Source of the DNA: Candidatus Chisholmbacteria bacterium RIFCSPHIGHO2_01_FULL_52_32
Lineage (GTDB): Bacteria > Patescibacteriota > Microgenomatia > UBA1400 > Chisholmbacteraceae
NCBI GenBank assembly: GCA_001816585.1
Contig: MHCJ01000006.1
Location: 40-64,039, forward strand
DNA: 64,000 nt
Direction of reading: 5' to 3'
Shown here: piece by piece, positions 7,521-37,920 of the stretch
Layout: every line of letters begins with the position of its first letter
How positions within the stretch are numbered: the stretch's first letter is position 1
The notes under the pieces: model-generated
Told to the model about the DNA's origin: nothing
What the model saw: the letters and a program-made list of their open reading frames with translations, nothing else
Database searches by the model: none
Made by a program: the position numbers and the translations under genes

Positions 7521-7620
7521 ATGCGAATTGGCGGGACCGTTCACGGGGCAGGTTTTCTTGGTTACTTCTTTGCCTGAACAAAGAAGTAACTGTCATTCTT
7601 GTGTAAAAAAATAAAAGAAA
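7521..7620. repeat. Partial copy (3' portion) of the roughly 190-bp repeat family (C4).
   Basis: ...ccgttcacggggcaggttttcttggttacttctttgcctgaacaaagaagtaactgtcattcttg matches the 3' ends of the copies at 11497, 12476 and 37735. Confidence 0.5.
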
Positions 7621-7627
7621 GAATCGT

Positions 7628-8356
7628 TTAAGAAAGAAGTAACCACGAAGCCAATAACACCAACACCACCCCCAAAGACAGCTTCATCCATTTCTCCGCC
7701 CGGTGTTCCCACTCCTTAATCTCAACGATCCGCCTTCCCTTCCACACCACGATGAGGATCACGATAAGGGGAAGGACAAAAAGGAGGTTGTAGTAGAGAA
7801 AATAGGCAATAACCAACGGCAAGGAAAAACCGGACTGGGCCAAAATCGTCGCCGTGCCAACATAGAGAGGCAGCGAGCATGGCGTTTCAAGCACGGTCAC
7901 CAAAACCCCCAGGACGACCACCGCGGGCAACGAAGCCTTCTCAACCAAACTCATAAGCTTCGCTTTGCTTGCCGTGGGAATCCGAAGGTGAATCGGCAAA
8001 TGCGGCCAAAAGAAGTCTTTGATCTGTATCAGGCCGGCGATCAGCAGCGCCGCCCCGATAGTTTTGTTGAGGGCTGACGAGGCCAAGCTTAAATTGAGCC
8101 TTGAAATCGTTTCGTAGAATGCAAGACCAATGACAAGGTACGTCGCAAAAATCGAACCAATGTAAACAGCTCCCGTGATAAGCACCTTCTCCGGTTTCTT
8201 GGCAAACACTAAAAGGTACCCCAAAAGCATCACCATCATCCCGATGGCACAAGGGTTAATCCCATCCACCAACCCCGCAATCGTTACCAAGGGAAAGCTT
8301 ACCAACCCACCTTGGCGTTCAAGGTAACACCCAACCGCCGTGCAATCTCCAATCAT
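7628..8356 (-). CDS. CcdA/DsbD-family cytochrome-c-biogenesis and disulfide-transfer transmembrane protein.
   Basis: Polytopic membrane protein, 242 aa, with conserved Cys in TM segments (GINPCAIG... and ETPCSLP). Confidence 0.65.
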   Translation of the reverse strand: MIGDCTAVGCYLERQGGLVSFPLVTIAGLVDGINPCAIGMMVMLLGYLLVFAKKPEKVLITGAVYIGSIFATYLVIGLAFYETISRLNLSLASSALNKTIGAALLIAGLIQIKDFFWPHLPIHLRIPTASKAKLMSLVEKASLPAVVVLGVLVTVLETPCSLPLYVGTATILAQSGFSLPLVIAYFLYYNLLFVLPLIVILIVVWKGRRIVEIKEWEHRAEKWMKLSLGVVLVLLASWLLLS

Positions 8357-8468
8357 GATCCCCCTCGTAAACTACAATCTCTGCATGATAACACATCAGC
8401 AGTATTTTTGAGCACCATAGAAACAGTACCCTTGGAATATCGCGTGAAACCCGCCGTAGTCCCGAGCA

Positions 8469-9416
8469 ATGTCGAGGGGCGAAGAAGGGTATCCCTTCAT
8501 TGATCCCTTGCCAAGAACGGCTTACAATGAACTCGTGAAGAAACCACCCGTGGTATCACAACCCCTTGCTTTTAAAACCCCTCCCGACGACCAACCCTCA
8601 GAAGATTTCTTCGAAGAAGCCGCCCTTTCCGGCGAGATAAAACCGCCGAAGAGGAAAATACATAAAGCCGATCTTCTCATTTGGCTTGGGATCGGTATCA
8701 TGTTTATCCTGTTTCTTGCCACCCGATATTATCGTATGGCCAGGCTGAGTAAGTCCCTATCAATACCACCCTTCTTCCAAGCCACCCCCACTCCCAATCC
8801 AACCGCCGACTGGAAAACACATCGAAGTGAAAAGTTTATGGTAGAGCTGAAATACCCTCCCGATTGGGAATTGCACGACAGTACAAATCAAGAAAATCCA
8901 TATTTACAAATTATAAAACGTGGTCCTTCAGGCTCCGAGCTTGATTGGACCGATGGTTCAGTGCTTAGCATCTCTATGACTGACTCTATTGAAGTCAATC
9001 TTGAAAAAGAATTTGTCTTACCTCATGATATCGTCGAAAAAATGAACCCAAAAGTATTTAGCTTCAATGGTTGGCAAGGATATAGACATAGTAAGTTCTT
9101 TGATTCTCCTGAAAATCGTCCCGAAAACTATTTTGAAGAGATTATCGCAACAAACACATCGCAGTCTGGAAAGATATTCAGAATCACTTGGTCCCAGATG
9201 AATGCCAATAACGGACTGACAGCAGAAAAATATCTTTTCCCGATCCTCTCCAGCTTCAAATTTCTAGACGAAAAGGCTGAAAATGCGAAGTGTGCTCAAG
9301 ACTCCGATTGTCAGAGCATCTGTGACGTATGCAGAGAAGGAGTCTGTAAGTACCAACTCGGCTGCCATCCGCTGCCCGATGAACTACGTTACGAAGAGAC
9401 ACCAACGATCGAATAG
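8469..9416 (+). CDS. Hypothetical single-pass membrane protein with a C-terminal Cys-rich module.
   Basis: One of the few plus-strand genes. One TM helix (LLIWLGIGIMFILFLA). The C-terminus reads CAQDSDCQSICDVCREGVCKYQLGC. Confidence 0.45.
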   Translation: MSRGEEGYPFIDPLPRTAYNELVKKPPVVSQPLAFKTPPDDQPSEDFFEEAALSGEIKPPKRKIHKADLLIWLGIGIMFILFLATRYYRMARLSKSLSIPPFFQATPTPNPTADWKTHRSEKFMVELKYPPDWELHDSTNQENPYLQIIKRGPSGSELDWTDGSVLSISMTDSIEVNLEKEFVLPHDIVEKMNPKVFSFNGWQGYRHSKFFDSPENRPENYFEEIIATNTSQSGKIFRITWSQMNANNGLTAEKYLFPILSSFKFLDEKAENAKCAQDSDCQSICDVCREGVCKYQLGCHPLPDELRYEETPTIE

Positions 9417-9432
9417 AAACTCTCAGTAGAAC

Positions 9433-9903
9433 CTACTCTCCCTCGAGAACCACCGGATCCCCAAGCTTCACCCCATGCCGCTCGGCCCAACCGCTGTTGA
9501 CCTCAAGCACCCACGTGGCCGGCAACCAGGTTGAGACCCGGGTCTCCGTACCATCCTCCCCTTCCCCCGGCGCTGGCACTTTGTGGGCAATATCAACCAC
9601 CTTCCCCTGATTGATAAACAGCATATCCAAAGGAAAGCGCATACCCTTCATCCAAAACGTCCGCCGCACCGACTCATCGGAGACAAATAACATCCCCTCT
9701 TCTTCTAAAAGACTCTCCCGACCGGAAAGCCCCTGACTCCATTCCTCCGGCGTCTTCGCCATTTCAACCGCAACCACATTCTCCCCAATCCGCAAACGGC
9801 CCATTTCAACAGGCACAATCCTCTCAAACTTACCGAAGCGTATAACTCCGGCTATAATGATCACTATAAAGAGAAGAAGGATAAATAATTTAGTTCCTCT
9901 CAT
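9433..9903 (-). CDS. DUF192-family protein.
   Basis: 156 aa with an N-terminal TM/signal. The motif content (GLSGR...LEEEGMLFV, ...MKGMRFPLDMLFI...) is DUF192-like. Confidence 0.5.
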   Translation of the reverse strand: MRGTKLFILLLFIVIIIAGVIRFGKFERIVPVEMGRLRIGENVVAVEMAKTPEEWSQGLSGRESLLEEEGMLFVSDESVRRTFWMKGMRFPLDMLFINQGKVVDIAHKVPAPGEGEDGTETRVSTWLPATWVLEVNSGWAERHGVKLGDPVVLEGE

Positions 9904-10840
9904 ACGACCTTTTTCTATTCAATGAGTATAATAATAACCCACCAAGAACAATCGATAAAACACCCATCCCCTGGGCAACATTAATCCCAAAAATAGCCCA
10001 CTGACTAATCCGTAACACCTCAAGCCCAAATCGACCCGCCCCATACAGTATAAGATACACGAAAAAATAGCTCCCTGCATGCAAGCGGAACCTCTTCCTC
10101 CAAATCAAAAACAGAACACCGAAAACGCCAAGCGAATACAGCGATTCGTAGAGGAAAAGGGGATGAAAATGGGTAAAATCCTCAAAACCGGCCATCCGAA
10201 ACTCGGGCGGGATAAAAAGACCCCAGGGAAGATCAGTCGGTTTCCCGTAGAGCTCCCGATTAAAAAAGTTTCCCCACCTCCCGATCGCCTGCCCAATCGG
10301 CAAGCCGAACGCCGCCAGATCAGAAAAAGCTAAAAATCGGTTCCTTACGCATTCAGAAAAGAGCGCGGACGTCTTTTCGTGCAGCGAACTACGGCCAGGC
10401 TGAAAGCCTGCCAGGCTTAACAACGAAGAAAGCTTCTCTAACCAAACCTTAGGAAACAAACGAAAAGTATGTCCGCGCTCACGACGGCATAACCACCAGC
10501 AAAACATCCACAATCCAAAGATCCCTCCGGCAATCGCCCCAAAAATCCCAAGCCCCCCCGTCCAAAGAGCGGGAATCAGGGCGAGGTGTTCCCGATAGTA
10601 CTCCCACAGATCGACTACATGATAGATACGCGCCCCAACAATCCCAGGTACCACCACCCACCACAACGATCCCCAAACATCGTTTGGGGATAATTCGAAT
10701 TTCGAATTTCGAATTTCGAATTTTCGCGCGAAGCGCGAGGCCACCCAAAATCCGACCAGAATCCCCAGTCCTACGAGAAGACCATAGGGGTGAATCATCA
10801 GTGAGAAAGTTTCCATTCTGCTTCCTCTATTGTAGCCCAA
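9890..10840 (-). CDS. lgt: Prolipoprotein diacylglyceryl transferase.
   Basis: Polytopic, with the Lgt signature region (...GRWGNFFNRELYGKPTDLPWGL...). An in-frame repeat insert, ARKFEIRNSKFEL, sits near the N-terminus. Confidence 0.8.
   Translation of the reverse strand: MGYNRGSRMETFSLMIHPYGLLVGLGILVGFWVASRFARKFEIRNSKFELSPNDVWGSLWWVVVPGIVGARIYHVVDLWEYYREHLALIPALWTGGLGIFGAIAGGIFGLWMFCWWLCRRERGHTFRLFPKVWLEKLSSLLSLAGFQPGRSSLHEKTSALFSECVRNRFLAFSDLAAFGLPIGQAIGRWGNFFNRELYGKPTDLPWGLFIPPEFRMAGFEDFTHFHPLFLYESLYSLGVFGVLFLIWRKRFRLHAGSYFFVYLILYGAGRFGLEVLRISQWAIFGINVAQGMGVLSIVLGGLLLYSLNRKRSYERN
10693..10726. repeat. Tandem heptamer repeat (ATTCGAA)x4, inside lgt and in frame.
   Basis: taattcgaatttcgaatttcgaatttcgaattttcg. 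Confidence 0.85.
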
Positions 10841-10854
10841 TCAAAAAAAAGGAA

Positions 10855-11433
10855 TCACAAAAGAAGGAGGTTGAGCAGCCCAAATCCACCAGTGAGGATC
10901 CACACAAACGTCCGTTGTTCTTCGGGTGAAACCTCTCGGGAAACCATCCAAAACAACCAGGAATTGAGGTGCTGCGGCCGCGTGAGCTGATCGCGCCAGA
11001 TATCGTAGACGAGGTGAACCATCAACCCGAGCGCAATCCCTTTCCCAAACAATCCCGAGGTTGAGGTGATCGCAAAGAACAGCACGGGAATAAAAACCAA
11101 CGCAAATACACCATTGCGAAAAGCCAGGTGGTACTGCTCTCCTCGACGAAGGAGAAGAGTTTGGAGTGCTTCCCGAAGTTTCCTTTGTCCCACCAACGAG
11201 GAAACCTGTTGCGAAAGCTGCTCGTGCGGCCGAGTGGCGTATACATGGATCACTCGGTCAAGGCCTAGAAGCGCCATTCCGATTGCGCCCCCGACCCAAA
11301 GTCCTACAAGATCAAACATCCCCCGAACGCTCCCGGGCCACTCCCACCGAAGAAGCATAAAGACAATCAAATAGACAACTAGCACACGGACATGCTCAGA
11401 AATCAACTTACGCATACTATTACTGTAGCACAA
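10855..11433 (-). CDS. Hypothetical polytopic membrane protein.
   Basis: 192-aa ORF with several hydrophobic helices. No recognised motif. Confidence 0.4.
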   Translation of the reverse strand: MCYSNSMRKLISEHVRVLVVYLIVFMLLRWEWPGSVRGMFDLVGLWVGGAIGMALLGLDRVIHVYATRPHEQLSQQVSSLVGQRKLREALQTLLLRRGEQYHLAFRNGVFALVFIPVLFFAITSTSGLFGKGIALGLMVHLVYDIWRDQLTRPQHLNSWLFWMVSREVSPEEQRTFVWILTGGFGLLNLLLL

Positions 11434-11496
11434 CTAAACTCCACGCAACAAGAAACCCCGGCAACAAACCAAGTACCCTTTGAGCGGCTTCTTTGT

Positions 11497-11700
11497 TCTT
11501 CATTCCCCTTTGAACGCAGCAATTCAAGACGAGCCGAGCGAAGACCATTAAAAAAGCGACCACTGTTCGACGAGCCTTTAGAGCGAGAAGTTTGGTCGCA
11601 TAGTCTAAAGGGAGGCGAAGTCCTGAATGACCGTTCAAGGGGCACCCTTTCTTGGTTCCTTCTTTGGGTGAGCAAAGAAGGAACTGCCATTCTTGGGCAC
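11497..11700. repeat. Copy C1 of a repeat family of about 190 bp. The 5' end ccctttgaacgcagc... is complementary to the internal ...cgttcaagggg, and a stem-loop closes the 3' end.
   Basis: Aligns along its whole length with the copies at 12476-12665 and 37735-37920. Confidence 0.55.
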
Positions 11701-11752
11701 ACAAAGAAAGTGGCTTTTTTTGGACAAGAGAAGAAACGGCCAGCCATCCCCT

Positions 11753-12037
11753 TTACCGCCGGACCTCAAAACCCCGAAGTGCCTCTGGTTTCTCCCAAGA
11801 AACATCAACCTTGCTCACCTTGGCAGACGGGCTCCCCTCCCAACACCAAGCGATCATTTCGTTGACCGCCGTCTTCTCCCCCTCAAACGCCGCCTCCACC
11901 CTTCCATCCGGAAGATTCCGGACCCATCCGGATAGCCCCAATGCCTGTGCCTCCTTCTGGGTATAGGCGCGAAAGAACACGCCTTGAACGAGGCCGGAAA
12001 TAACAACCTGTGCGCGAACCCGCATAATAATTACCAA
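11753..12037 (-). CDS. acyP: Acylphosphatase.
   Basis: 94 aa with VQGVFFR and GWVRNLPDGRVE motifs. Confidence 0.8.
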   Translation of the reverse strand: MVIIMRVRAQVVISGLVQGVFFRAYTQKEAQALGLSGWVRNLPDGRVEAAFEGEKTAVNEMIAWCWEGSPSAKVSKVDVSWEKPEALRGFEVRR

Positions 12038-12128
12038 TAATACAAATCCGACAAATAGTACAAATCAATCTTTATCTATATTCAATTTTTTTCTTTGGCA
12101 GAAATAATGATGCTCGACACGATTTTCG

Positions 12129-12458
12129 CTATTTCTTTCCCTTCTTGGCGGAGTTATTCCACAGACATCTCCCCAAATCCACATGCATCTCATCTCGAAA
12201 ACTCACTCCCTCAGCCTGCAACCTCCTTCGCTGCTCCGTCGCTCCGTCAAAGACAAAATTCGGCGCCAGTCTGCCGTTTCGGTCCACCACCCGGTGACAT
12301 GGCACCTTTGGATCGTTATTCGCATGCATTGCATGCCCGACCCTCCGCGCATCCCGTGTACCTAATGCCCTCGCGACCTCGCCATACGTTGTCACTCGGC
12401 CTCGCGGAATCTTCTTCACAACCCTGTAAACATCCTTAAAAAAACTCATAGATTCCAA
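12129..12458 (-). CDS. MGMT-family (O6-alkylguanine-DNA alkyltransferase DNA-binding domain) protein.
   Basis: 109 aa with the PCHRVV active-site motif and a HTH (TYGEVARALG). Confidence 0.7.
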   Translation of the reverse strand: MESMSFFKDVYRVVKKIPRGRVTTYGEVARALGTRDARRVGHAMHANNDPKVPCHRVVDRNGRLAPNFVFDGATEQRRRLQAEGVSFRDEMHVDLGRCLWNNSAKKGKK

Positions 12459-12475
12459 ATAAGTGTGTTTATGTT

Positions 12476-12665
12476 ACCCCTTTGAACGCAGCTACTCAAG
12501 ATGAGACGAGCGAATTCTAATAAGAAGTCATCGACTGTTCGACGAAGTGTTTACCACGAGGAGTTTGATGACATTGATGAGCGAGGCGAAATCCTGAGAG
12601 AACGTTCAGTGGGGTGCGCTTCTTTGGTTACTTTCTTGCGCAAACAAGAAAGTAACTTAATCCGC
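12476..12665. repeat. Copy C2 of the roughly 190-bp repeat family. Its 3' hairpin overlaps the stop of the CvpA-CAP gene.
   Basis: cccctttgaacgcagctactcaagatgagacgagcgaat...cgttcagtggggtgcgcttctttggttactttcttgcgcaaacaagaaagtaac. Confidence 0.55.
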
Positions 12666-13631
12666 AAACACCTGCACAAACATCTTCCCGTACGTCCCGC
12701 CATCAATGACCCCGATTCCGATCCGCTGAAATTCTGGGTCCAGGATATTCCGCCGGTGTCCCTCACTCTGCATCAATCCTTCATGCGCCATCTCAAGGGT
12801 CGGTGCGAGTGCCAGATTCTCCCCTGCCACAAGATACATCAGCCCTGCCTCACGCAGACGGTTTCCCACATCTTTCCCTTCTGGACTGACGTGGGAAAAG
12901 TACCCCCGCTCAAACATATCCGTAGCGTGGGCTCGGGCGACACCAACGATCGCCGGATCCCACAAGAGAGCCTTGACACCCCGCTCTTCCCGCTCACGAT
13001 TCACCAACCCAAACATCGCAAGCTCCGTCTTCTCATCAATGCGAAGCGAAGGTTTTGTAACTTCAAACCCGAGTTTAATCCGCTCCGTCCCTTTCGGCTC
13101 AACAGTCAGGAAGGAGAGGGTTTCTTGGATCGCCTCGCCGAATACGGCATCGAGCTGTCGCTCAAGCGTACTTGTCCGTCGGACTAGAAAACCCCCGATT
13201 CTACTTTCAAAGATCGTCTGTTTAACCTCCGGACGCAGTGGAAGGGAAGTCGCAAGTGTCAACAGTACAGCGCTCACAATCAACCCATTGATGAGCGACG
13301 GGAAAAGACCGAGAAGATTCCGCCAAAGTCGGGAGAGCTTCTTTGTAGGAAGTTCCTTGAGAGCCCCAACGAGAACAACGGTGAGGGTTGCGTGGGAGAG
13401 AAGATAAACAAACAGAAATCCGATGACGTTTGCGATGCCGCGGGATAACAGAAAAAGCTGGGAAAAGAGCTCGGCAGACCTCGGATAAAAACGGAGAGCG
13501 AACACAAATGCCCCGAGAAAGGCGATAAGATCGGCGACCAAAATAAAAAAACCCTCATCCCACGCATCGACAATCCAGATAAAAAGAATAAGCAGAATGA
13601 GAAGGTCAACAATATTTCCCTGAAACAGCAT
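12657..13631 (-). CDS. CvpA-family membrane domain fused to a C-terminal CAP/SCP (PR-1-like) domain.
   Basis: N-terminal MLFQGNIVDLLILLILFIWIVDAW... is CvpA-like with 4 TM helices. The C-terminal GYFSHVSPEG...GENLA...HR is CAP-like. Confidence 0.55.
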   Translation of the reverse strand: MLFQGNIVDLLILLILFIWIVDAWDEGFFILVADLIAFLGAFVFALRFYPRSAELFSQLFLLSRGIANVIGFLFVYLLSHATLTVVLVGALKELPTKKLSRLWRNLLGLFPSLINGLIVSAVLLTLATSLPLRPEVKQTIFESRIGGFLVRRTSTLERQLDAVFGEAIQETLSFLTVEPKGTERIKLGFEVTKPSLRIDEKTELAMFGLVNREREERGVKALLWDPAIVGVARAHATDMFERGYFSHVSPEGKDVGNRLREAGLMYLVAGENLALAPTLEMAHEGLMQSEGHRRNILDPEFQRIGIGVIDGGTYGKMFVQVFAD

Positions 13632-13723
13632 AAGGAATAATTGCTATATTGCAAAATGGTTAAATTGTTAAAAAACAATTCAACAATGAGCGAACTGATG
13701 TGAGCGGTAACAATATAACAATT

Positions 13724-14029
13724 TCATTTGTTCTCCTCATACAACGGCTCCCCTTTCTTCAACTTGGTCAATGCCCACATAAAGAGCTTTGCTTTGGAAC
13801 GCACGTTCCGAGCGTCCTTCACAAACGTCCGCGCCTGCTCGAGGTGGGCACGATTGGATACTTTGGCCAATTTGATGTAGAGGCTCTTATTCCGCTCATC
13901 GGAAAGCTCCATCGCTAAGCGATACCCATAATCCTGGAACTCCTGGGTAATATACTTCTTTTTATCCCAGTCGTATTCAAGGAGAAGTTTACCGATTGAT
14001 TGGAATTTCGCGTCCCGCTTCCTGCCCAT
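13724..14029 (-). CDS. Hypothetical protein.
   Basis: 101-aa ORF-track entry, basic, no recognised motif. Confidence 0.3.
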   Translation of the reverse strand: MGRKRDAKFQSIGKLLLEYDWDKKKYITQEFQDYGYRLAMELSDERNKSLYIKLAKVSNRAHLEQARTFVKDARNVRSKAKLFMWALTKLKKGEPLYEENK

Positions 14030-14060
14030 ATCTGCTCCCGGTGGTATAACTCAGGCAACG

Positions 14061-14606
14061 TCATTCGCTTACCAACCCGAGAATTCCACCAAACTCCAGA
14101 ACTACCTGATCAGTCACCTGTTGTATAAGCGCCTGTTCTTCTTCCGTAAACCGCTGCAGGACATACGCCTCTCCGGTCGTCCTCTGCTCTTCCATGCCCT
14201 TCGCCCTATGCTCTATGCCGATACGAATATGCCAGAATCCCTCCGAACCCAATTCTCTATAGATCGATTGAAGTCCCTGATGTACTTTCGGCCCTTTCCC
14301 AAATTGAATCTTGTACTTCCCAAGCGGAATATCTAAATCATCATGCACGACATAAAGATTAGACTTGGAAACCTTGTAAAACCGAACCAACTTCCCGACA
14401 GCCACTCCAGATCGATTCATAAACGTCTGTGGTTTCGCCAATAAAACATCATCTACCTGGAACACCAAGCTCATATACTTTTCATTGATTTTGAATTTTG
14501 AATTTTGAAGCGTTGCTGCTAGCTCCTCCACCACCAAAAATCCGACATTGTGTCTGGTGCCAACATATTTCCCTCCCGGATTCCCCAAACCAACGACAAG
14601 TTTCAT
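14061..14606 (-). CDS. pth: Peptidyl-tRNA hydrolase.
   Basis: MKLVVGLGNPG...GTRHNVGF...HDDLD signatures. Contains two in-frame repeat inserts, QNSKFKIN and an AKGMEEQR-type segment. Confidence 0.85.
   Translation of the reverse strand: MKLVVGLGNPGGKYVGTRHNVGFLVVEELAATLQNSKFKINEKYMSLVFQVDDVLLAKPQTFMNRSGVAVGKLVRFYKVSKSNLYVVHDDLDIPLGKYKIQFGKGPKVHQGLQSIYRELGSEGFWHIRIGIEHRAKGMEEQRTTGEAYVLQRFTEEEQALIQQVTDQVVLEFGGILGLVSE
14486..14510. repeat. Tandem heptamer repeat (TTTTGAA-like), inside pth and in frame.
   Basis: tgattttgaattttgaattttgaag. Confidence 0.8.
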
Positions 14607-14607
14607 A

Positions 14608-15243
14608 TCACGAAGCAGAAAGTATCCGCTTCACCTCCTCATCGGTCACCTGCCCAAATTCACGATAGAATTGTCCGACGGCAGAAAACCACTCCGGTTT
14701 ATCAAGACATATCGTGCGATCGGCTAACCGTTCAAGTCTGGTCATGGAATCCCGCGCTCCCGTCGGAACAGCCAGAATGATCTCTTTTGGGCGCTGGGTC
14801 CGAAGCCAGGAAAGCGCCGCTTCAAGTGTTGCGCCGGTCGCAACGCCGTCATCAACAACAATCACCACTTTCTCCTTGAGCACTAGGGATCGCCCCTCTC
14901 GAAATATCCGAATGTACTCCTGAATTGTCCGGGAAACCCGTCTCATCTCCCTCGGAAGATCTTCCTTCTCGATCCCAAGCTTGGAAAGAAGTTCCTCTTC
15001 AAAAATCGGCTTCCCGTCTTCAGCCATCGCCCCTATTGCCAATTCCGCATTGGAAGGTGCCCCAATTTTCTTGGTTACAATAACATCCAAAGGAAGATGA
15101 AGTGTTCGGGAAACCTCATATCCGACCACAACTCCCCCACGGGGTACGGCCAATACCAATGCATTCGGATGGTTGGAGTAGGAGAAAAGCTCCCTGGAAA
15201 GAAGTCGTCCAGCTTCTTTCCGGTCGCTAAAGACCTTTGCCAT
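14608..15243 (-). CDS. Phosphoribosyltransferase-family protein.
   Basis: PRPP-binding motif VVIVVDDGVATGATL. 211 aa. Confidence 0.65.
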   Translation of the reverse strand: MAKVFSDRKEAGRLLSRELFSYSNHPNALVLAVPRGGVVVGYEVSRTLHLPLDVIVTKKIGAPSNAELAIGAMAEDGKPIFEEELLSKLGIEKEDLPREMRRVSRTIQEYIRIFREGRSLVLKEKVVIVVDDGVATGATLEAALSWLRTQRPKEIILAVPTGARDSMTRLERLADRTICLDKPEWFSAVGQFYREFGQVTDEEVKRILSAS

Positions 15244-15248
15244 GTCGT

Positions 15249-15590: not shown

Positions 15591-15824
15591 AATCTCGTCT
15601 CACCACCTTTCTAGCACCATAATATATTTCGATAGTCGCAGCCCCGTACTGGAGCCTGATTTTTGAAACGGCTGGACTCGCCTCGATTCGAGTCGAAGCG
15701 GGTAAGCGGTTTTCAAAAATTCAAGCGACTAGTTCTGGGGCAAGCACCGTAAAAAATCACAAAGAGTATATTGCTCCAACTCTACCATTCGTCCCTCTGA
15801 ACATCAAGGTTTGCCCCCGACCCT

Positions 15825-15935: not shown

Positions 15936-15939
15936 ACTC

Positions 15940-30770: not shown

Positions 30771-30926
30771 AAATTGAAGCCTCCCCGGCTTAAAAGGCCA
30801 ATGTTTCCTTCAATGGTTAGGCTGAAACCCCGTACCGACCAGTCTGATCCAGTCTGACTGGGCAACCACGTTTGACGCGGCTGGTCTGGTACTGGGGTAA
30901 AGTATACCAGTTATAGAGGAAAGCGA

Positions 30927-32069
30927 CTACACGACCTTCCCTTTCGTCACGCACTGCTCCACAAATTCCCTCATCTCCCGCTTGAAGCGCTCCTTAGAAA
31001 ACCTCTGCGCCTCTTTCTGTATCTCTTCAACTTTAAACTTTTCACTTTGAACTTTGAACTTTCTTATCGCCCCAACCAACCCCTCAACGGTATAGTCATC
31101 GAAAAAGACACCGGTCTTACCCTCGACAACCGACTCAACGTACCCTCCGCCGCGATAGGCCACCACCGGCGTCCCGTAGGCCATCGCTTCAACCGGCGTA
31201 ATTCCAAAATCCTCGTCCTCTGCCGTGGCAAGAAATGCCCGAGCTCCGGCGTACAGCTCGGCCAAACGCTCATCGGCTACTTCCCCGAGAAACTCAATAG
31301 TATCCCCTGCCATCTGCCGTAAACGCCTTCCCGCCGACCCCCACCCTGCCGGTTTGCCGACGATCTTCAGGGATATACGCATCCGGTTCGCGGCTTCGAC
31401 GGCAAGCTCCAGCCCCTTCCCACCCACAATCCTCGAAACAACCAGATAATAGTCTCTACCATCTTGTTTCTTGTTTCTTGTTACATGTTTCTGTATCTCA
31501 ACCGGCGGATAAATCACCGTTGCCTCTTTGCGGTAGAACTTCTCAATCCGCTTCGCAACATTCTTCGAATTCGCTACAAAAAAATCCACTCGTTGGGCCG
31601 CCCGAAAATCGTACATTCTCAGGAAATGTCCGACAATCATCCCGTACACCCGCACCGGCCAATATCGGCGCCACTCAACCGAAGTTTGATACCCGTAGAG
31701 GTACCTTGGTGGCGTGTGGCAGTAACAAACCTCAACCGTATTCGGCCCCCTTCGAAATCCTTTCGTGATATACCAGTTTGCACTTGAGATCACAACATCA
31801 TAGTTTGAATAATTAAACTGCCTCCATACCAAAGGGGAAAGAAACCGTAAAGGGCTGGCAAGTCGCGAGGCAAAGGGAATCCAATGGAACCAAGAAACTC
31901 GAATATCTTTATCTCGGAAGCGCTCCCAAGCGGAAGAGTTTCGTAAGTAGTACGCCGTATAAATCGGCGCTTCCTGCCAGATTTCACTCAAGGCCAGAAG
32001 TACCCGCTCCGCCCCACCAAATTCATGAAGATAGTCATGAACCAGTGCAACACGCAACGTATCTCTCAT
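30927..32069 (-). CDS. Glycosyltransferase, GT-B fold (GT4-like).
   Basis: The C-terminal E-x7-E region (EDEDFGITPVEAMAYGTPVV) is typical of GT4. Two in-frame heptamer inserts: KFKVQSEKFKV and TRNKKQD. Confidence 0.8.
   Translation of the reverse strand: MRDTLRVALVHDYLHEFGGAERVLLALSEIWQEAPIYTAYYLRNSSAWERFRDKDIRVSWFHWIPFASRLASPLRFLSPLVWRQFNYSNYDVVISSANWYITKGFRRGPNTVEVCYCHTPPRYLYGYQTSVEWRRYWPVRVYGMIVGHFLRMYDFRAAQRVDFFVANSKNVAKRIEKFYRKEATVIYPPVEIQKHVTRNKKQDGRDYYLVVSRIVGGKGLELAVEAANRMRISLKIVGKPAGWGSAGRRLRQMAGDTIEFLGEVADERLAELYAGARAFLATAEDEDFGITPVEAMAYGTPVVAYRGGGYVESVVEGKTGVFFDDYTVEGLVGAIRKFKVQSEKFKVEEIQKEAQRFSKERFKREMREFVEQCVTKGKVV
31030..31064. repeat. Tandem heptamer repeat (ACTTTRA/ACTTTTC-like), inside the GT4 gene and in frame.
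   Basis: actttaaacttttcactttgaactttgaactttc. Confidence 0.8.
31462..31492. repeat. Tandem heptamer repeat (TCTTGTT), inside the GT4 gene and in frame.
   Basis: tcttgtttcttgtttcttgttacatgtttc. Confidence 0.8.
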
Positions 32070-32092
32070 TACTCCTTACTCCTTACACCTCC

Positions 32093-33061
32093 CTAAAACA
32101 TCTCCTCCTGCACCATCTGCTCAAACGAATCGTCAGGAAGACGGGGGATTAAGGTGGTAAATTCGAGCGCTCGGAACTTCTCGACAGCCTTTTCCTTATC
32201 GTAATCCGAAACAACACACTTCCCAAGATCAAGCACGATGGGAGCATCGGTCGCAATCGTAGCAAGCTTCATGGAAAGATGAGCAGACTCCTTTCCATCG
32301 GCCAATTTCTGAAACACCGCTTCACCAAATTTCGTTTTGATTTCTTTAAGGTGGTGATAAACCCTGCCCAAGTCACCGTAGGTTTGAATAAGCGTTGTTG
32401 CTGTCTTTGGTCCGATGCCCTTTACCCCGGGAATTTCATCTGATGAATCTCCGGCAAGTGCTTTAAAATCGGTCAGCTGCTGCGGAGTCAGCCCATACCG
32501 CTCCATCACGACATCGACATCCCAAAGCGTTGCTGCCTGTTTTCCCCTTCCGGGAGTGTAGACCACCACGCGTTTCCCCTCCACGAGTTGCAGAGCATCG
32601 CGATCCCCTGTTACAATCACAACTTCAATATCATTTTTTTTCCCTCTGCCTTTCACCCTTTGCCCTTTGCCGTGAGCCGCTTGTTTCACGAGCGTTGCAA
32701 TCACATCATCCGCTTCATACCCTTCCAGCGAAAAAATTGGGATATTGAGGATCGACACGATCTCCCAAACCCGTTCCTGTTGACTCGCAAGGTCGGCCGG
32801 CATCTCTGGCCGATGGGCCTTATAGCCCTTGTACTCCACATGGCGAAAGGTCGGTTTGTCCCGATCGAAGCAAACCACAAGGTGGGAAGGCGAAAGCTCG
32901 CGAATGACAGAAAGAAGAATGTTGGTAAATCCATAGACGGCGTTAATCAATTCCCCTTTTCTCGTCGTCAGGGGCGGGTACGCATGAAAGGCCCGGAATA
33001 GCACCGAATGTCCATCAATCAGAACCAGTCGCTTTTGTTGATCGGATTTTCCTCGATTCAT
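32093..33061 (-). CDS. Stand-alone 5'-3' exonuclease (DNA polymerase I N-terminal-domain-like, FEN family).
   Basis: ...LVLIDGHSVLFRAFHA... plus an H3TH region (GIGPKTA). An in-frame insert HGKGQRVKGRGKK is encoded by a CTTTGCC-type repeat at 32648-32672. Confidence 0.8.
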   Translation of the reverse strand: MNRGKSDQQKRLVLIDGHSVLFRAFHAYPPLTTRKGELINAVYGFTNILLSVIRELSPSHLVVCFDRDKPTFRHVEYKGYKAHRPEMPADLASQQERVWEIVSILNIPIFSLEGYEADDVIATLVKQAAHGKGQRVKGRGKKNDIEVVIVTGDRDALQLVEGKRVVVYTPGRGKQAATLWDVDVVMERYGLTPQQLTDFKALAGDSSDEIPGVKGIGPKTATTLIQTYGDLGRVYHHLKEIKTKFGEAVFQKLADGKESAHLSMKLATIATDAPIVLDLGKCVVSDYDKEKAVEKFRALEFTTLIPRLPDDSFEQMVQEEMF

Positions 33062-33097
33062 AAAGGTAATTCTATCACAAGCCCCCAGAGGAAAAAG

Positions 33098-33122
33098 AAA
33101 ACCTCCGCTTCTCTCGGAGGCT
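33098..33122 (-). terminator. Rho-independent terminator downstream of ftsH.
   Basis: On the minus strand, a hairpin cctccgagagaagcggagg followed by a U-rich tract. Confidence 0.4.
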
Positions 33123-33156
33123 CAAGTATTGCCGAAAATCTCCATTTCTTATTTAA

Positions 33157-33235
33157 TCCTGAGCGAACGCGTCTTGAGTGACCTGTGGTGAGCGAAGTCG
33201 AACCAAATCGAAGGAGTCGAAGGACTATTCACCCT
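33157..33235. repeat. Interspersed element, copy B: aatcctgagcgaacgcgtcttgagtgacctgtggtgagcgaagtcgaaccaaatcgaaggagtcgaaggact.
   Basis: About 85% identical to 15838-15912. Confidence 0.65.
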
Positions 33236-33291
33236 GATCCGCCAACCCTGTTACCGTCTGGTACAGGGCCAGCTGGCGCACGAAGGACTTC

Positions 33292-35208
33292 CTAGTCTCT
33301 ACCCTTTTCTCCCGAAGGCGGTTGCGCCTTTGGCATCCCCATGATCTTCTCAAACTCTTCTCCGTCTAAAGATTCCTTCTTCACAAGCTCTGCAGCAACA
33401 GCATCAAGTTGCTCTCGATATTTGGTCAAAATCTTTACAGCTTCTTTGTAAGCTACATCAACGATTTTCTTGATCTCCACATCAACCTTCGCCTGCATCT
33501 CCTGAGAAAGCTGGCTTGGTTCAACGATCGCTCGCCCCCATTCGGAGGCATCCCATTGCGGTCCCAAGTTGACGGGTCCGATATCGCTCATCCCGTAATC
33601 CTCAACCATACTTCGCGCAATCCGGGTCACTTTATCGATATCGCTTGCCGCGCCCCCCGTCAATTCCGAAAATACCAGCTCCTCAGCCGCCCGTCCTCCC
33701 AAAAGAGTCTTGATCGTATCCAAAAGCTCACTCCTTGTTTGGGTATACTTATCCTTCTCCGGAGGCATGAGGGTAAATCCAAGCGCGAGTCCCCGCGAAA
33801 CGATGCTAACCCGATGCACGCGATCGGAATACGAGGAAAGATGCCCGACCACGGCGTGTCCACCCTCATGATATGCCGTCATTCGCCGTTCATAATCGCC
33901 CTGGAGTCTCTTCTTTTCCGGTCCCAACTTCACCTTGGTTGCCGCCTCCTCGATATCGCTCGTATCCACGGAGTGTTTATCAACCCGCGCCGCCAAAATT
34001 GCCGCTTCGTTGAGCATATTCTCAAGGTCAGCTCCAGAAAACCCAACCGTCCGTTTGGCAACTTTATCCCAATCAACATCTCGGGAAATCGGCTTCCCCT
34101 TCGCATGAATGAGAAGCACGCGCTTTCGCTCTTCGATATCGGGAAGGTCAAGGGTGACTCGTCGATCGAACCGCCCGGGCCGTAAAAGCGCAGGATCCAA
34201 AAGATCCCCGCGATTCGTCGCTGCAAGCACAATCACATTGTCATTCGGAGTAAATCCATCCATTTCAACTAAAATTTGATTTAAGGTCTGCTCGCGTTCA
34301 TCATGGCCTCCGGCAACTCCCAATCCGCGGACCCGACCAATCGCATCAATCTCATCGATAAAAATGATGGCGGGAGATGACCGCTTTGCAGTATCAAACA
34401 GATCCCGCACCCTGGATGCCCCAACGCCGACAAGCATTTCCATAAACTCTGACCCTGCCATGGAGAAAAAGGGGACCCCCGCCTCCCCCGCGACCGCCCG
34501 CGCGAGTAAGGTCTTCCCGGTTCCGCTTGGTCCAACCAAAAGAACGCCTTTGGGAGTCCGCGCACCCAATCGGCTGTATTTCCGAGGATGCTTAAGGAAA
34601 TCCACCACCTCTTCAAGCTCCTTCTTTGCTTCGGCCACCCCACCGACATCGGCAAAGGTCACCGTCTGTCGGCCCTTTGAAAAGAGTTTGGCTTTGCTCC
34701 GACCGAAGGTAAACAGACTGTCTTGGGCTCCCCTCGCTTGCCTGATCAAAAAGAGGAAAAATAATCCCATGAAGAGAAGGGGTAAAACCGTTCCCGCGAT
34801 GTCCCACCAAACCCGTCCCATGCTCTGATCATGTACCTCAATCGTCACGGACTGGGGATCGACATCTGAGTTCTTCAAAATCTCTACCAACGTCTCGTTT
34901 CCTTCCTTCCGCGAGGTTCGCTGTTCTCCCCCTCGATAGGTCAAAATGAGACGCTCCCCGTCCACCCCAACCTTCTCCACCCGCGAGTTACCGATGTCCG
35001 AGATTGCTTGAGATAATGGAATCTCCTCAGTTACAGACTTCGCCGCGAGGAATGAAAGAATAAACGGGGTAAAAAGAAAGAGCAGAATCACCCACAGAAA
35101 AATCCGCTTCGGGTTGAAATGAAGCCGCAGTTCCATCCGCCGCATCTTCCGGGGCATTTGGGGTGGTTGGGGTGGTTGAGGTGGAGGGACAGTTTGTTGG
35201 TCTTCCAT
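33292..35208 (-). CDS. ftsH: ATP-dependent zinc metalloprotease FtsH.
   Basis: AAA Walker A GPSGTGKT, the second region of homology, and zinc-binding HEGGH. The ORF-track start (35289) overlaps the upstream gene, so Met 35208 is the more likely start. A PPQ-encoding 9-nt tandem repeat lies at the 5' end. Confidence 0.9.
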
Positions 35209-35212
35209 AACT

Positions 35213-35575
35213 TTATCGAATGGTTGTTCCTGGGACAACCTCCTCTTGAGGGCTGATGAGGATCGGCTTTTCTTCACAGTCCGCTGCAAGCAGCATCCCG
35301 GAAGAAGTTAGCCCTCGAATCTCTTTCTCCTCTAAATTAACCACAACAACAATCTGCTTTCCCACTAGATCCGAGGTCGTATGGCTTTTTCGAAGCCCTG
35401 CTATCAACTGCCGCTTCCCGACTTCACCTAAATCAACAGTAATCTTTAAAAGGTTATCCGCACCCTCAACAGGATCCGCGGTTTGTATGGTACCAACCCG
35501 CAGATCAAGCCTGGAAAAATCGGAAAACGGGATTGTGGCCTTCACTGTGGAAGTATACCACAGCGAAACGGACAA
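35213..35575 (-). CDS. tRNA-binding-domain protein (CsaA/EMAP/Myf-like OB fold).
   Basis: 120 aa with ...LDLRVG.I......P.ADKL......DLGE... and ...LLAAD.... Matches tRNA-binding proteins. Confidence 0.6.
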   Translation of the reverse strand: MSVSLWYTSTVKATIPFSDFSRLDLRVGTIQTADPVEGADNLLKITVDLGEVGKRQLIAGLRKSHTTSDLVGKQIVVVVNLEEKEIRGLTSSGMLLAADCEEKPILISPQEEVVPGTTIR

Positions 35576-35609
35576 CGGAATCGAAATTCCATAAAAGAAA
35601 CAGAAAAAA

Positions 35610-36599
35610 TCATCCTAAACCAACCTTCCCCCGCACTCTATCAAGTGTCTCCCTGGCAATACGCCGGGCTTTTTCGGAACCCTCACGAAGCACCCGATCA
35701 ACATACGGCTGATCCTCCGTAAGCAAGTTCCGACGGCGCTGGAACGGCTCAAGCTCCCGGTGAATCGCCTCAGAAAGCTCATCCTTCAAAGCTTGATACC
35801 GAATCCCCTCCGACCGATACTGCGCTTCACACGTCCGCCTCCGATCCTCTCCCATAAACAACCCAACCAACACCAGAAGGTTCGCCACCCCTCCTTTCTC
35901 AGGGACTTTCTCTCCCTTCCCTGAATCGGTCGGGACCGTAGCCAGCCGCTTGCGAATCGTAGAAAGGTCATCGGTGAGCGTGATATAACTCCCCGAAACA
36001 GACTTGCTCATTTTACCCTCCCCAACCAGGCTCGGAACATATCCCCCCGACGTCTCAAACCGCTGCGGCTCGGGAAAATCCGTGCCGTAGGTTTGGTTCA
36101 TCTTACGGGCAATCTCCCTGGCAATCTCAAGGTGCGGCTCCTGATCAACCCCAACCGGCACCAGCTCCGCCTTGTAAGCAAGGATATCTGCCGCCATCAG
36201 AATTGGATAGTTCAAAAGTGCCATCGTCACGGCTTTGGGGTATTGCTTGACCTTATCCTTAAATGTTGGCAAGTGCTGCATGCGGGCAACGGAAACAACC
36301 GTAGCAAAATAGAAGGCAAGCTCCGTATGCTCCGGCACATCCGATTGAGCAAAGATGATGCTGCGTTTTGGATCCAACCCGGCTGCCAGATAATCCATGA
36401 CAACTTCCCGTCGGTTGACCCGCAGCTCCTCGGGATCGTACGGGGTTGTCATCGTATGCAAATCCGCAATCATGTACAGGGTTTCGTAGTCGGGATTATC
36501 CTGCAAGGAAAGCATACCTTTCACAGCCCCAAGGTAATTCCCGAGGTGTAATCGTCCGGTTGCGCGGATACCTGATAATACCCGTTTCTTCCCGCTCAT
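35610..36599 (-). CDS. trpS: Tryptophan--tRNA ligase.
   Basis: Class I HIGH (GRLHLGNY) and KMSKS motifs. 329 aa. Confidence 0.9.
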   Translation of the reverse strand: MSGKKRVLSGIRATGRLHLGNYLGAVKGMLSLQDNPDYETLYMIADLHTMTTPYDPEELRVNRREVVMDYLAAGLDPKRSIIFAQSDVPEHTELAFYFATVVSVARMQHLPTFKDKVKQYPKAVTMALLNYPILMAADILAYKAELVPVGVDQEPHLEIAREIARKMNQTYGTDFPEPQRFETSGGYVPSLVGEGKMSKSVSGSYITLTDDLSTIRKRLATVPTDSGKGEKVPEKGGVANLLVLVGLFMGEDRRRTCEAQYRSEGIRYQALKDELSEAIHRELEPFQRRRNLLTEDQPYVDRVLREGSEKARRIARETLDRVRGKVGLG

Positions 36600-36635
36600 A
36601 GTGCTCCTACTTTATCATAATATGAGCCCCAGTCT

Positions 36636-36839
36636 TCAATACTGTCCTGGAGCATCTCCACTAATGCGATGGATTTCTTCTCGGACATCGGCTAACCTCT
36701 GCGCCACCGCTTTAACGGTATCATGGTCGTTGTTCTCAACAGCCTGAAACAGTGCCGCATCAAGCACAACAAGCTGTTGTCCGAGAACGTCAGGGGCCTG
36801 AGTTTCTTCCACACCTCTCCGTCCGCTTTCCATTACCAT
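36636..36839 (-). CDS. Hypothetical small protein between the candidate T-box leader and trpS.
   Basis: 67-aa ORF with non-repetitive composition. Confidence 0.25.
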   Translation of the reverse strand: MVMESGRRGVEETQAPDVLGQQLVVLDAALFQAVENNDHDTVKAVAQRLADVREEIHRISGDAPGQY

Positions 36840-36871
36840 ATTTTCTCACCTCCTTTCAAGCAATTGGCCAT

Positions 36872-37170
36872 AAAAAAACCCTTACGGATTTCCAAACGAT
36901 TATTGGAAACCTGCAAGGGCCCTTCAATTCCGCTTTAGGGCGGTGCCACCTCGCTTTTCCCTGTGAGATAAGCAAGCTATCTCACGGGACTCATTCATGA
37001 CGTGCTCCGCGAGTATACCCCGAGTTTATCGAGGGGCGACACACGCTGCAGTCTTTCTACGGTTTCGCCTCCGTCCCGCTATTTTGGCGGACAGCTCCCC
37101 GGTCCCAACCTTACCGGATCATCGCTTTTGTTCACTTATGGTAACGATCTTATTGTACAAAACTTGTCAA
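36872..37170 (-). promoter_or_regulatory. Candidate T-box riboswitch leader, Trp-type, ending in an intrinsic terminator, upstream of trpS.
   Basis: The minus-strand RNA contains AAAAGCGAGGUGGCACCGCCC, which matches the T-box core GGUGGNACCGC. The UGGC segment would pair with the tRNA-Trp 3' end GCCA. A long hairpin plus U7 terminator follows (cccuugcagg...ccguaaggguuuuuuu). A GAUGA K-turn-like motif lies upstream. Stem I and the specifier were not rigorously folded. Confidence 0.4.
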
Positions 37171-37176
37171 GCTCTG

Positions 37177-37249
37177 TGCTAGGGGTGGGATTCGAACCCA
37201 CGACCTATCGCTTATGAAACGACCGCTCTGCCACTGAGCTACCCTAGCA
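37177..37249 (-). tRNA. tRNA with anticodon CAU, either elongator Met or Ile2/lysidine. They cannot be distinguished by eye.
   Basis: Minus-strand cloverleaf: GCUAGGG / UA / GCUC-AGUGGCAGA-GAGC / GUCGU-UUCAUAA-GCGAU / AGGUC / GUGGG-UUCGAAU-CCCAC / CCCUAGC-A. Confidence 0.85.
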
Positions 37250-37261
37250 ACACCTCAAAAT

Positions 37262-37295
37262 TGTACCAAAAAGAAAGCCCCGAAAGAAATCAGGG
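37262..37295 (-). terminator. Intrinsic terminator immediately downstream of tRNA-fMet.
   Basis: Minus strand: aagccc-ugauuucuuuc-ggggcuu followed by ucuuuuugg. Confidence 0.45.
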
Positions 37296-37578
37296 CTTGA
37301 GTGTTGCGGGGCCAGGAGTTGAACCTGGTCTGCGAGATTATGCGTGTTGTTTTCTCCAGTTTCCTGGAGTACCGGACTATGTCTTAACCCGTTAGATAAT
37401 CATAATCACATATCTAATGGGTTCCTGGCGTATAGTCTCTACGGATTCCCATTCAAGGTCTTTCCTCGGCGTTGCCGTACTCAGTTCATGAGGGTAGGTT
37501 TCGCCGATATAGCCAGGTGCACTCCATCAATTACTCGATAGAGGGCCCATCATTGAGCCTCACGTGCTACCGTACACT
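37296..37578 (-). tRNA. Initiator tRNA-fMet (CAU) interrupted by a group I intron in the anticodon loop.
   Basis: 5' exon CGCGGGGUAGUGUACGGUAGCACGUGAGGCU. 3' exon CAUAAUCUCGCAGACCAGGUUCAACUCCUGGCCCCGCAA. The C1 x A72 mismatch and the CGCGGGG...CCCCGCAA acceptor are initiator hallmarks (compare E. coli tRNAfMet CGCGGGG...CCCCCGCAACCA). The spliced anticodon loop is CUCAUAA. Confidence 0.7.
37335..37547 (-). ncRNA. Group I intron of about 213 nt inserted between U33 and C34 of tRNA-fMet.
   Basis: The 5' exon ends in U (the P1 U-G pair) and the intron ends in G. The core elements resemble the R and S elements as I recall them from group I introns such as Tetrahymena's (written from memory): GUAGAGACUAUACG against an R-like ucAGAGACUAnA, and UAAGACAUAGUCCGG against an S-like AAGAUAUAGUCC. 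An IGS-like GGGCCCUC can pair with the exon end GAGGCU. Confidence 0.65.
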
Positions 37579-37734
37579 ACCCCGCGCGTTGTCAAAACGA
37601 GCCAATTTTACCAAATTCCTCTGGAAAAATCAACCTAAAAAAACGTCTCTCTCTAAACGCATTTCAATTGGACCAAGAAGCATGAAGTATTGAGTAAGAA
37701 GGAAATAAACTCGCTTTGGGGATCTCTTCTTGAA

Positions 37735-37920
37735 TACCCTTTGAACGCAGCTACTCGAGAACGACGTGAGCGAATACCATTAAGATGTCATCGACTGTCC
37801 GACGAAGGGTTTATCCCGAGAAGTTTGATGACAAAGGATGAGCGAACGAGCTCCCGAGAGACCGTTCACTGGGGCGTCATTCTTTGGTTACTTTCTTAGA
37901 CGAGTAAGAAAGTAATAAAT
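37735..37920. repeat. Copy C3 of the roughly 190-bp repeat family.
   Basis: accctttgaacgcagctactcgagaacgacgtgagcgaat...cgttcactggggcgtcattctttggttactttcttagacgagtaagaaagtaat. Confidence 0.55.

Follow-up and report, generated by a model that had tools for sequence, protein, structure and literature searches.

The window, as we call the whole stretch of DNA analysed here, comprises 64,000 nucleotides (64 kb) of contig MHCJ01000006.1 of Candidatus Chisholmbacteria bacterium RIFCSPHIGHO2_01_FULL_52_32, a member of the candidate phyla radiation (CPR). In the gaps between its genes lie three full copies and one 3' fragment of a repeat, all on the + strand. The copies are 71–80% identical pairwise (BLAST E = 1e-12 to 1e-41 within the window), and the 15-mer CCCTTTGAACGCAGC occurs exactly three times. 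Each full copy is formed by a 5' domain, in which a closing helix (P1) surrounds a long hairpin (helices P2 to P5), and by a 3' module, in which a short strand (a), a pyrimidine linker (L1) and a hairpin (S2) follow one another. An initial annotation had placed the repeat at four loci; all of them do contain it, with the limits now adjusted to those of the copies and the fragment listed below. A scan of the window with the covariance model R1, which was built from 11 copies, matched these four and no others.

11505–11685, + strand: full copy A (covariance model 196 bits, BLAST); P1 5' arm 11505–11516, long hairpin P2–P5 11517–11631, P1 3' arm 11632–11642, pseudoknot strand a (CACCC) 11643–11647, third strand L1 (TTTCTT) 11648–11653, S2 hairpin 11654–11685 with the loop GGTGAG at 11667–11672, whose GGTG pairs with a
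11475–11499, + strand: 5' stub of 25 nt directly before copy A (by eye)
11686–11745, + strand: 3' tail of copy A with two degenerate S2-like hairpins (by eye)
12477–12657, + strand: full copy B (covariance model 190 bits, BLAST); P1 12477–12488 with 12603–12614, a (TGCGC) 12615–12619, L1 (TTCTTT) 12620–12625, S2 12626–12657 with the loop CGCAAA
37737–37916, + strand: full copy C (covariance model 174 bits); P1 37737–37747 with 37863–37874, a (CGTC) 37875–37878, L1 (TTCTTT) 37880–37885, S2 37886–37916 with the loop GACGAG
7538–7591, + strand: copy of the 3' module only, the fragment (BLAST, covariance model); remnant of the P1 3' arm 7538–7548, a (CAGG) 7549–7552, L1 (TTTTCTT) 7553–7559, S2 7560–7591 with the loop CCTGAA

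The stub before copy A reads ACCCTTTGAGCGGC and then TTCTTTGTTCTTC; it is a remnant of another copy, and similar stubs occur at two related loci outside the window (L137 and L153). The two hairpins of the tail behind copy A (GCCATTCTTG...CAAAGAAAGTGGC, then TTTTTTTGGACAAGAGAAGAAAC) are homologous to the tails of locus L123 and of the fragment (7592–7650), and this tail probably arose by tandem repetition of the 3' module and subsequent decay. The degenerate tail of the fragment runs to about 7650 and includes an inverted S2 arm at 7632–7649. Extra degenerate S2-like hairpins after the pseudoknot are also present in L123, L141 and L142 (for example with GGACAAG or GGACGAG loops and CAAAGAA arms), which suggests that the 3' module can duplicate in tandem and then decay. 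The 3' end of copy B overlaps the stop codon of the convergent gene 12657–13631 (−), and its 5' end is 18 nt away from the start codon of the gene 12129–12458 (−).

Fold of the element and its 3' pseudoknot

The 5' end of the element (CCCYTTTGAACG) pairs with CGTTCA(N)(N)GGGG about 111–112 nt downstream, forming the helix P1 (CCCCUUUGAACG with CGUUCA(N)GGGG). The initial annotation had described complementary termini; the complementarity is real, whereas the terminal position is not, since P1 has its 3' arm inside the element, with a pseudoknot module of about 45 nt still to follow. The structure was drawn by hand on 11 full copies, which come from the window and Chisholmbacteria-like contigs. 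Pairing is kept in 95% of the cells and double-sided changes are found in 25 of the 51 pairs, values that none of 500 shuffles reaches, and pairing falls to 38–48% when the partners are slid by 1–3 columns. The earlier claim of covariation thus stands with more copies aligned, and the three hairpin stems that had been said to vary in a paired way are all present and compensated. P1 is invariant among the aligned copies, in part because the search pattern demanded it; a compensated variant (GAGCG/CGCUC) exists in L137. Helix P2 is made of three segments, P3 occurs in alternative forms (GCGACCA/UGGUCGC or GUCAUCG/UGAUGAC) and is followed by P4, and the apical hairpin P5 varies among GCC/GGC, GUG/CAC, GGG/CCC and GCG/CGC. 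The long hairpin is imperfect; its GA-rich internal loops are conserved, and around the variable apical hairpin there is an asymmetric distal loop, CUGUUYGA ... GAG(A)AGUU. Tertiary or protein contacts are suggested by unpaired stretches that are conserved, GAGCGAA on either side of the long hairpin as well as CUGUUCGACGAAG ... CGAGAAGUU. The folding energies correspond to z = −2.3 to −5.4, and neither an ATG nor a reading frame is kept between copies.

The 3' hairpin is part of an H-type pseudoknot and not a simple hairpin. In every copy, the sequence of the 4–5 nt after the GGGG of P1, which form strand a, complements that of the 5' portion of the S2 loop, with pairs as different as CACC/GGUG, UGCG/CGCA, CGUC/GACG, CAGG/CCUG, CACU/AGUG, GCCC/GGGC, UGCC/GGCA and UGUC/GACA, and all four pairs of this helix show double changes among the 11 full copies. 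The order of the strands is a, L1, S2 5' arm, a', 2 nt and S2 3' arm, where S2 is a hairpin of 12–13 bp and L1 a linker of 6–7 pyrimidines between a and S2.

L1 read 5' to 3' complements the purine strand of S2 in the same direction, that is, in parallel register. This match is complete in 15 of 16 modules over five tracts (UUUCUU/AAAGAA, UUCUUU/AAGAAA, UUUUCUU/AAAAGAA, UUUCUUU/AAAGAAA and UUCUUUU/AAGAAAA) and extends to 6 of 7 positions in the remaining one, L152. The third-strand register matches at 100%, against 50–75% when it is slid, and the antiparallel match, the Watson–Crick competitor, is one base short in most modules. The single C of L1 is always in parallel register with the single G of the purine strand. 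Since the copies were collected through a 5' motif, the triplex signal is no artefact of their collection. A parallel match of pyrimidines to purines is what U.A-U and C+.G-C major-groove triples require. Judged from the sequence, the module is predicted to be an RNA triple-helix pseudoknot, combining loop-to-upstream pairing with a parallel co-varying third strand, and we think it very likely that the triplex forms physically. On A-form geometry, the foot of S2, with its six variable base pairs, would be roughly as long as the span that the third strand needs to rejoin the 5' arm.

Relatives in CPR contigs and prophages

A bare 15-mer scan of a genome collection gave 118 loci, 116 of them chance matches; the two real ones (L040 and L048) are contigs of the Candidatus Chisholmbacteria genome RIFCSPLOWO2_01_FULL_49_14 (CPR, Microgenomates), with a GC content of 49% like the window. 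Scanning metagenomes with a 19-mer from the 5' end provided about a dozen distinct copies, besides one contig (L126, JGI metagenome contig Ga0209324_10167734) that is 100% identical to window 11497–11700 and 12476–12665. Full copies are found in L122, L127, L132, L142, L145, L150 and L152, whereas L123 and L141 are 'mini' versions that lost the distal hairpin via deletion between GAACGA direct repeats. Extra hairpins are inserted in L122, L153 and L137, and the last two also have 5' stubs; that of L153 (1806–1832, −) is 26 nt long and lies about 110 nt upstream of the gene of ribosomal protein L10 (rplJ). The copy in L040 is rearranged, with a middle part that has no closed hairpin (z = −1.2). 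We considered it as a second architecture and rejected this idea, a 5' stub together with a 3' module being the best reading of it. Shuffling of 5' and 3' domains is seen as well: copy A, L123 and L127 have one 3' domain and different 5' domains, and L132 joins a 5' domain like that of copy A to a 3' domain like that of copy C.

The CPR element typically lies antisense between two genes of the same direction, down to 0–18 nt from their stop and start codons, and in a tally of open reading frame (ORF) orientations the gene at its 3' end is convergent in 13 of 15 loci. The flanking genes are ordinary ones, encoding acylphosphatase, a methyltransferase-like DNA-binding protein, a CvpA-CAP fusion, a Trp-repressor-like protein, tryptophanyl-tRNA synthetase and an FtsB-like protein.

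One of these loci, L152, permits comparing the element with its surroundings. It is the syntenic ortholog of copy C, with the same FtsB-like gene downstream and a tRNA gene split by a group I intron upstream. Between both copies the 5' domain is 91% identical and the pseudoknot domain 64%, its stems being replaced with compensation, whereas the adjacent FtsB-like coding sequence is 67% identical and the flanking intergenic DNA 28–39%. The 5' domain is therefore constrained more strongly than the neighbouring protein gene, which argues for a function of the element itself, beyond selfish persistence.

The split tRNA gene in the window (37305–37585, −) has the anticodon loop CU-CAU-AA, of the Met/Ile2-type CAU; the intron seemingly splitting it is at 37353–37565 (Rfam) and the exons, assigned by eye, are GCGGGGUAGUGUACGGUAGCACGUGAGGCU... 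and ...AUAAUCUCGCAGACCAGGUUCAACUCCUGGCCCCGCA. ARAGORN run on the window did not report this split CAU tRNA. The orthologous region of L152 looks duplicated or rearranged. Another tRNA gene, at 39651–39723 (−), is a tRNA-Ile with the anticodon UAU, which is uncommon in bacteria.

The family is also present in phage DNA. A 14-mer scan of viral contigs gave chance matches throughout, and a scan by the pattern of the triplex module gave 159 distinct modules, many of them low-complexity matches. Although not asked for in the pattern, complementarity at the foot of the stem is present in 31 of the 159, and 10 of these 31 stem-paired modules show 4/4 loop-to-a pairing in strict register, versus 2 of the other 128. 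Most of such loci with upstream sequence have the closing helix, the long hairpin and a distal loop CUGUUUGA-[mini-hairpin]-GAGUU, and then a, L1 and S2; their apical mini-hairpins are GCGAAGC, GCGTAGC or GCGCAGC. The repeat family inferred from the window thus has further copies, about 12 distinct ones in Chisholmbacteria-like contigs and about 30 distinct 3' modules in viral contigs.

One group of viral copies is found in P2-like prophages, where the element has the small-terminase gene on one side and the head-completion gene on the other and is in sense with the late genes; the DNA of these prophages carries the Haemophilus uptake signal sequence (USS, AAGTGCGGT). Other viral copies are in GC-rich contigs, some with P2-like or Mu-like genes, and their neighbour genes are mutually unrelated. 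Among 79 closely related P2-like prophages, 59 are without the element, 16 contain it complete and 4 as a mini version. At least four alleles exist at this site (short, full element, mini element and, in L526, one of the 59, an unrelated insert of about 150 nt), so that the site between the small-terminase and head-completion genes (L484–L563) is a hot spot where small cargo is exchanged by recombination. The variable segment extends into the terminase gene, whose last ~70 nt are replaced too, and it is therefore impossible to read a clean insertion boundary or a target duplication from it. Stubs, deletion derivatives and the patchy presence in prophages indicate that the element is gained, lost and rearranged. 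The viral copies have no BLAST match among INPHARED phages, PLSDB plasmids or E. coli genomes. One end of a viral contig of 9.9 kb (L278) carries two convergent triplex-pseudoknot modules about 170 nt apart (6–50, +, and 200–245, −), each followed by a GCCCGC...GCGGGC hairpin; the same tail occurs in L431.

The initial annotation had left open a miniature inverted-repeat transposable element (MITE). On this account the repeat would be a selfish MITE- or PATE-like element, mobilised in trans, with its structure kept only for mobility. The copies are indeed multiple and intergenic, they include 5' stubs, 3'-only copies, deletion 'mini' versions and internal insertions, and they are scattered patchily across distant hosts, as in the prophages just described. 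Nevertheless, we find this account unlikely. The complementary arms are not at the ends, as P1 joins the 5' end to an internal site with about 45–110 nt of conserved 3' module beyond. The flanks of 14 distinct copies, checked for target-site duplications, have no common direct repeat and no conserved target. Copies of one genome are only 71–80% identical, the prophage polymorphism looks more like a segment replacement than a clean insertion, and the orthologous copy is more constrained than its neighbouring gene. Moreover, neither the window nor about 40 related loci yielded a transposase, TnpB, IscB, reverse transcriptase or integron integrase. REP/BIME, ERIC and Correia-type repeats and MITEs share with the element that they are short, ORF-less, multi-copy, intergenic and palindromic, with truncated or rearranged members. 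They differ from it in that the element has neither terminal inverted repeats nor target duplications, that its copies diverge far more, with compensatory changes, a pseudoknot and third-strand covariation, and that it is present in unrelated phyla and phages.

Several known families were also considered as identities. At gathering threshold, the Rfam 15 matches over the whole window are limited to the group I intron and two tRNAs; with E<=10, copies A and B and the prophage copy get nothing but chance miRNA or snoRNA matches, and in 16 viral loci nothing overlaps the element. No described family matching it was found in the literature. An IS200/IS605, TnpB, IscB or PATE identity was rejected, since the flanking ORFs in the window and in viral loci are housekeeping or phage structural only (Pfam) and the Rfam omega-RNA models were negative. 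The idea of an integron attC site came up since small genes are followed by antisense copies and one copy is 550 nt away from a tyrosine recombinase. We discarded it: the recombinase (38477–39355) scores as XerC/XerD/XerA, with 68 bits for integron integrase against a cut-off of 265, the intervening gene is FtsB-like, the P1 cores are TTTGAAC/GTTCAAR versus RYYYAAC/GTTRRRY, and the copies are scattered among housekeeping genes.

Folding strand and nature of the molecule

In the CPR copies, G-U pairs outnumber A-C mismatches by 38 to 9 (25 to 9 without a debatable U8.G pair), and in the viral homologs, where the b/b' stems were picked by a strand-symmetric criterion, G-T outnumbers A-C by 16 to 2. 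As G-U is far above A-C, the + strand is the folding strand and is under selection; the pyrimidine third strand on the + strand fits the common triplex motif. What is conserved is a selected, strand-specific, single-stranded fold with a pseudoknot and a co-varying third strand. Between the two options of the initial annotation, a functional structure is favoured over a MITE by the G-U excess, by the co-varying pseudoknot and third strand, and by the 91% versus 67% constraint. We lean towards considering the copies as paralogs of an unannotated family of structured small RNAs, encoded on the + strand, horizontally spread and ended by a 3' triplex knot.

Some observations weigh against this view. 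A scan for consensus (sigma-70-like) promoters upstream of the element found none, and the AT-rich −10-like hexamers that can be seen by eye just upstream would put the transcription start inside P1. An intrinsic terminator on the same strand within 110 nt downstream is present in 1 of 44 modules, versus 6% of random windows. The CPR element is nearly always antisense to its flanking genes, so its reverse complement is certainly contained in operon transcripts, while a + strand RNA would need a promoter and none is seen. The 2-nt loop across the minor groove of the pseudoknot helix of 4–5 bp is sterically tight, and the role of the 3' module is taken from analogy. Finally, the viral apical hairpins are GCGNAGC-type mini-hairpins, which we take to be very stable in single-stranded DNA.

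An intrinsic terminator was also tried as an identity of the element and rejected, S2 being AU-rich with no U tract and a variable 3' flank. The terminator scan flags only the hairpin of the fragment (7559–7592, where 5 of 8 tail positions are T), and shuffles give at least as many.

Since G-T pairs are tolerated in DNA hairpins too, the strand counts cannot separate RNA from single-stranded DNA (ssDNA). The + strand might act as ssDNA, for example as a priming or single-strand-origin-like site or as a structure recognized by a recombinase or nuclease, with a triplex of T.A-T and C+.G-C triples in DNA. Pyrimidine-motif triplexes and mirror repeats are classical DNA structures, P2-like phages, which are among the hosts, replicate by a rolling-circle-type mechanism, and the GCGAAGC, GCGTAGC and GCGCAGC mini-hairpins presumably resemble the very stable DNA hairpins of ssDNA-phage origins; the lack of a promoter or terminator in the scans would also be in agreement with this possibility. 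However, the folding strand in the window is the leading-strand template (the C-rich strand by skew) and the template strand of the flanking genes. It is thus not normally exposed as single-stranded DNA, either in lagging-strand synthesis or as a non-template strand, which counts for RNA. Besides, no copy is adjoined by an HUH nuclease, Rep, transposase or integron integrase, and the 91% conservation of unpaired positions in the 5' domain is typical of RNA–protein or tertiary contacts. On balance, we think that the DNA alternative is rather unlikely and that the element, as far as its sequence tells, is likely an RNA.

The active molecule might also be the reverse complement, carried in the mRNA of the flanking genes as an intercistronic or 3' untranslated region (UTR) stabiliser or processing site. 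Between the stop codon and the next start of opposite-strand genes, the complement of the CPR element would be co-transcribed, and the − strand of 12476–12665, the one copy folded both ways, folds about equally well by nearest-neighbour energy. Yet the asymmetry of G-U versus A-C favours the + strand, the third strand would need a purine-motif RNA triplex, which is unusual, and in P2-like prophages the arrangement is the opposite one, with the element in sense with the late genes. For these reasons we regard an mRNA element as highly improbable.

Likeness to known systems and possible role

Triple-helix RNA elements are well documented in eukaryotes, in eukaryotic viruses and in a few riboswitches. 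The telomerase RNA pseudoknot has the same arrangement as the element: helix 1 is followed by a pyrimidine-rich loop 1 placed in the major groove of an A-U-rich helix 2, parallel to its purine strand, and a closing helix (P1) surrounds the neighbouring domain. In contrast to it, the element is bacterial or from phages, has neither a template region nor TERT, its helix 2 has 12–13 bp, its loop 3 is of only 2 nt, and the one C+.G-C triple shifts between copies. The elements for nuclear expression (ENEs) of the MALAT1 and PAN RNAs likewise have two U-rich strands that clamp an A-rich tract near the 3' end, with a single C+.G-C among U.A-U triples; they are proposed to block 3' decay and also occur in viral and transposable-element RNAs. 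ENEs differ in that they are stems whose U-rich internal loop takes up an A tract or poly(A) located downstream, and not H-type pseudoknots, and in that they are from eukaryotes or eukaryotic viruses, whereas a protective role of the present element is something that we infer. Among bacterial RNAs, the SAM-II, SAM-V and preQ1-II riboswitches are H-type pseudoknots with a major-groove triplex formed by loop 1. Unlike them, the element has no conserved ligand pocket, as the triplex sequence slides, no consistent 5'-UTR position or downstream gene class, and no Rfam match at E<=10. A riboswitch of SAM-II/preQ1-II type was rejected, the triplex sequence varying in register and the neighbour genes being unrelated and mostly convergent.

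The element could also be the partner RNA of a protein encoded elsewhere, either as the template of a reverse transcriptase (retron-, UG27- or DRT-like, with the apical hairpin being copied) or as a TnpB/IscB-type scaffold. The topology that the triplex pseudoknot shares with the telomerase RNA core counts in favour of this proposal. The closest published analogy in layout is with the ncRNA units of UG27. These units, of about 150–167 nt, have a main hairpin with an asymmetric internal loop whose short conserved motifs surround a variable central stem, and a basal hairpin plus pseudoknot; they occur in prophages, where single units are gained and lost (bioRxiv 10.64898/2026.09.22.753630). The unit size (about 150–190 nt) and the diverse sequence with conserved structure are the same in both. 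However, the element is adjoined by neither a reverse transcriptase nor accessory genes, it lacks the UG27 motifs AUCN7UANAG and UUYA, its copies are dispersed and not arrayed, and no triple helix has been reported for UG27. The TnpB reRNA, or omega RNA, of IS200/IS605 elements is multi-copy and mobile-element-associated too, and the apical loop of its triplex stem takes part in a pseudoknot of about 5 bp (PMC10711439, PMC11844463). Nonetheless, there is no tnpB or tnpA near the element and no similarity to any omega-RNA family of Rfam, even below threshold, and the topology is different, since the pseudoknot partner of the element is immediately 5' of the third strand whereas in TnpB RNA it is next to the 3' guide. 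A YxDD scan of the window and about 25 loci gave no reverse transcriptase, and neither TnpB nor IscB was found there. Altogether, a partner RNA of this kind seems very unlikely to us. A retron/UG-type template RNA was rejected as an identity, as no YxDD ORF with a reverse transcriptase-like context exists in the window or in 26 related loci.

Returning to the structured small RNA that we favour, a mechanism may be outlined. The triplex knot would lock the A-rich 3' strand, which may guard or define the 3' end of the RNA against 3'-to-5' exonucleases. By analogy with ENE/MALAT1 and telomerase-type triplexes, it is possible, with clear reservations on our part, that the 3' module protects or defines the 3' end. 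The sequence-constrained 5' domain would be the working part, probably a protein-binding platform; we infer that its hairpin binds a protein. The family would move horizontally among CPR chromosomes and P2-like and Mu-like prophages, duplicate, swap 5' and 3' modules between paralogs and decay to stubs and deletion derivatives. A more tentative proposal, which we hold as doubtful, is that this could be the first prokaryotic and phage small-RNA family with a telomerase/ENE-like major-groove triplex pseudoknot as a portable 3' module, an RNA gene moving between phages and CPR bacteria without a protein of its own, the 5' hairpin of which recruits a host or phage protein, possibly a polymerase or nuclease in trans.

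The family is spread over CPR bacteria and phages and is absent from Rfam 15. The structural principle is known, whereas the family itself, the combination of a hairpin with a portable triplex and the presence in CPR bacteria and prophages appear to be undescribed; a portable triplex pseudoknot on a conserved long hairpin, with several paralogs per genome, has no match in Rfam 15 or in the literature. To our knowledge, almost no non-coding RNAs have been characterised in CPR bacteria, and we think that there is a fair chance of new biology behind this family. The three-way covariation makes an unusually clear structural prediction, and the presence of the element in prophages of culturable Haemophilus-type hosts makes direct testing possible. 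Should the module turn out to stabilise the 3' ends of RNAs, bacteria would have a counterpart of ENE/MALAT1 in it, and RNA engineering a compact tool. If the element is instead a single-stranded DNA element, or serves a protein whose gene lies elsewhere as template or guide, it would hint at a mobile or defence-related system that is new.

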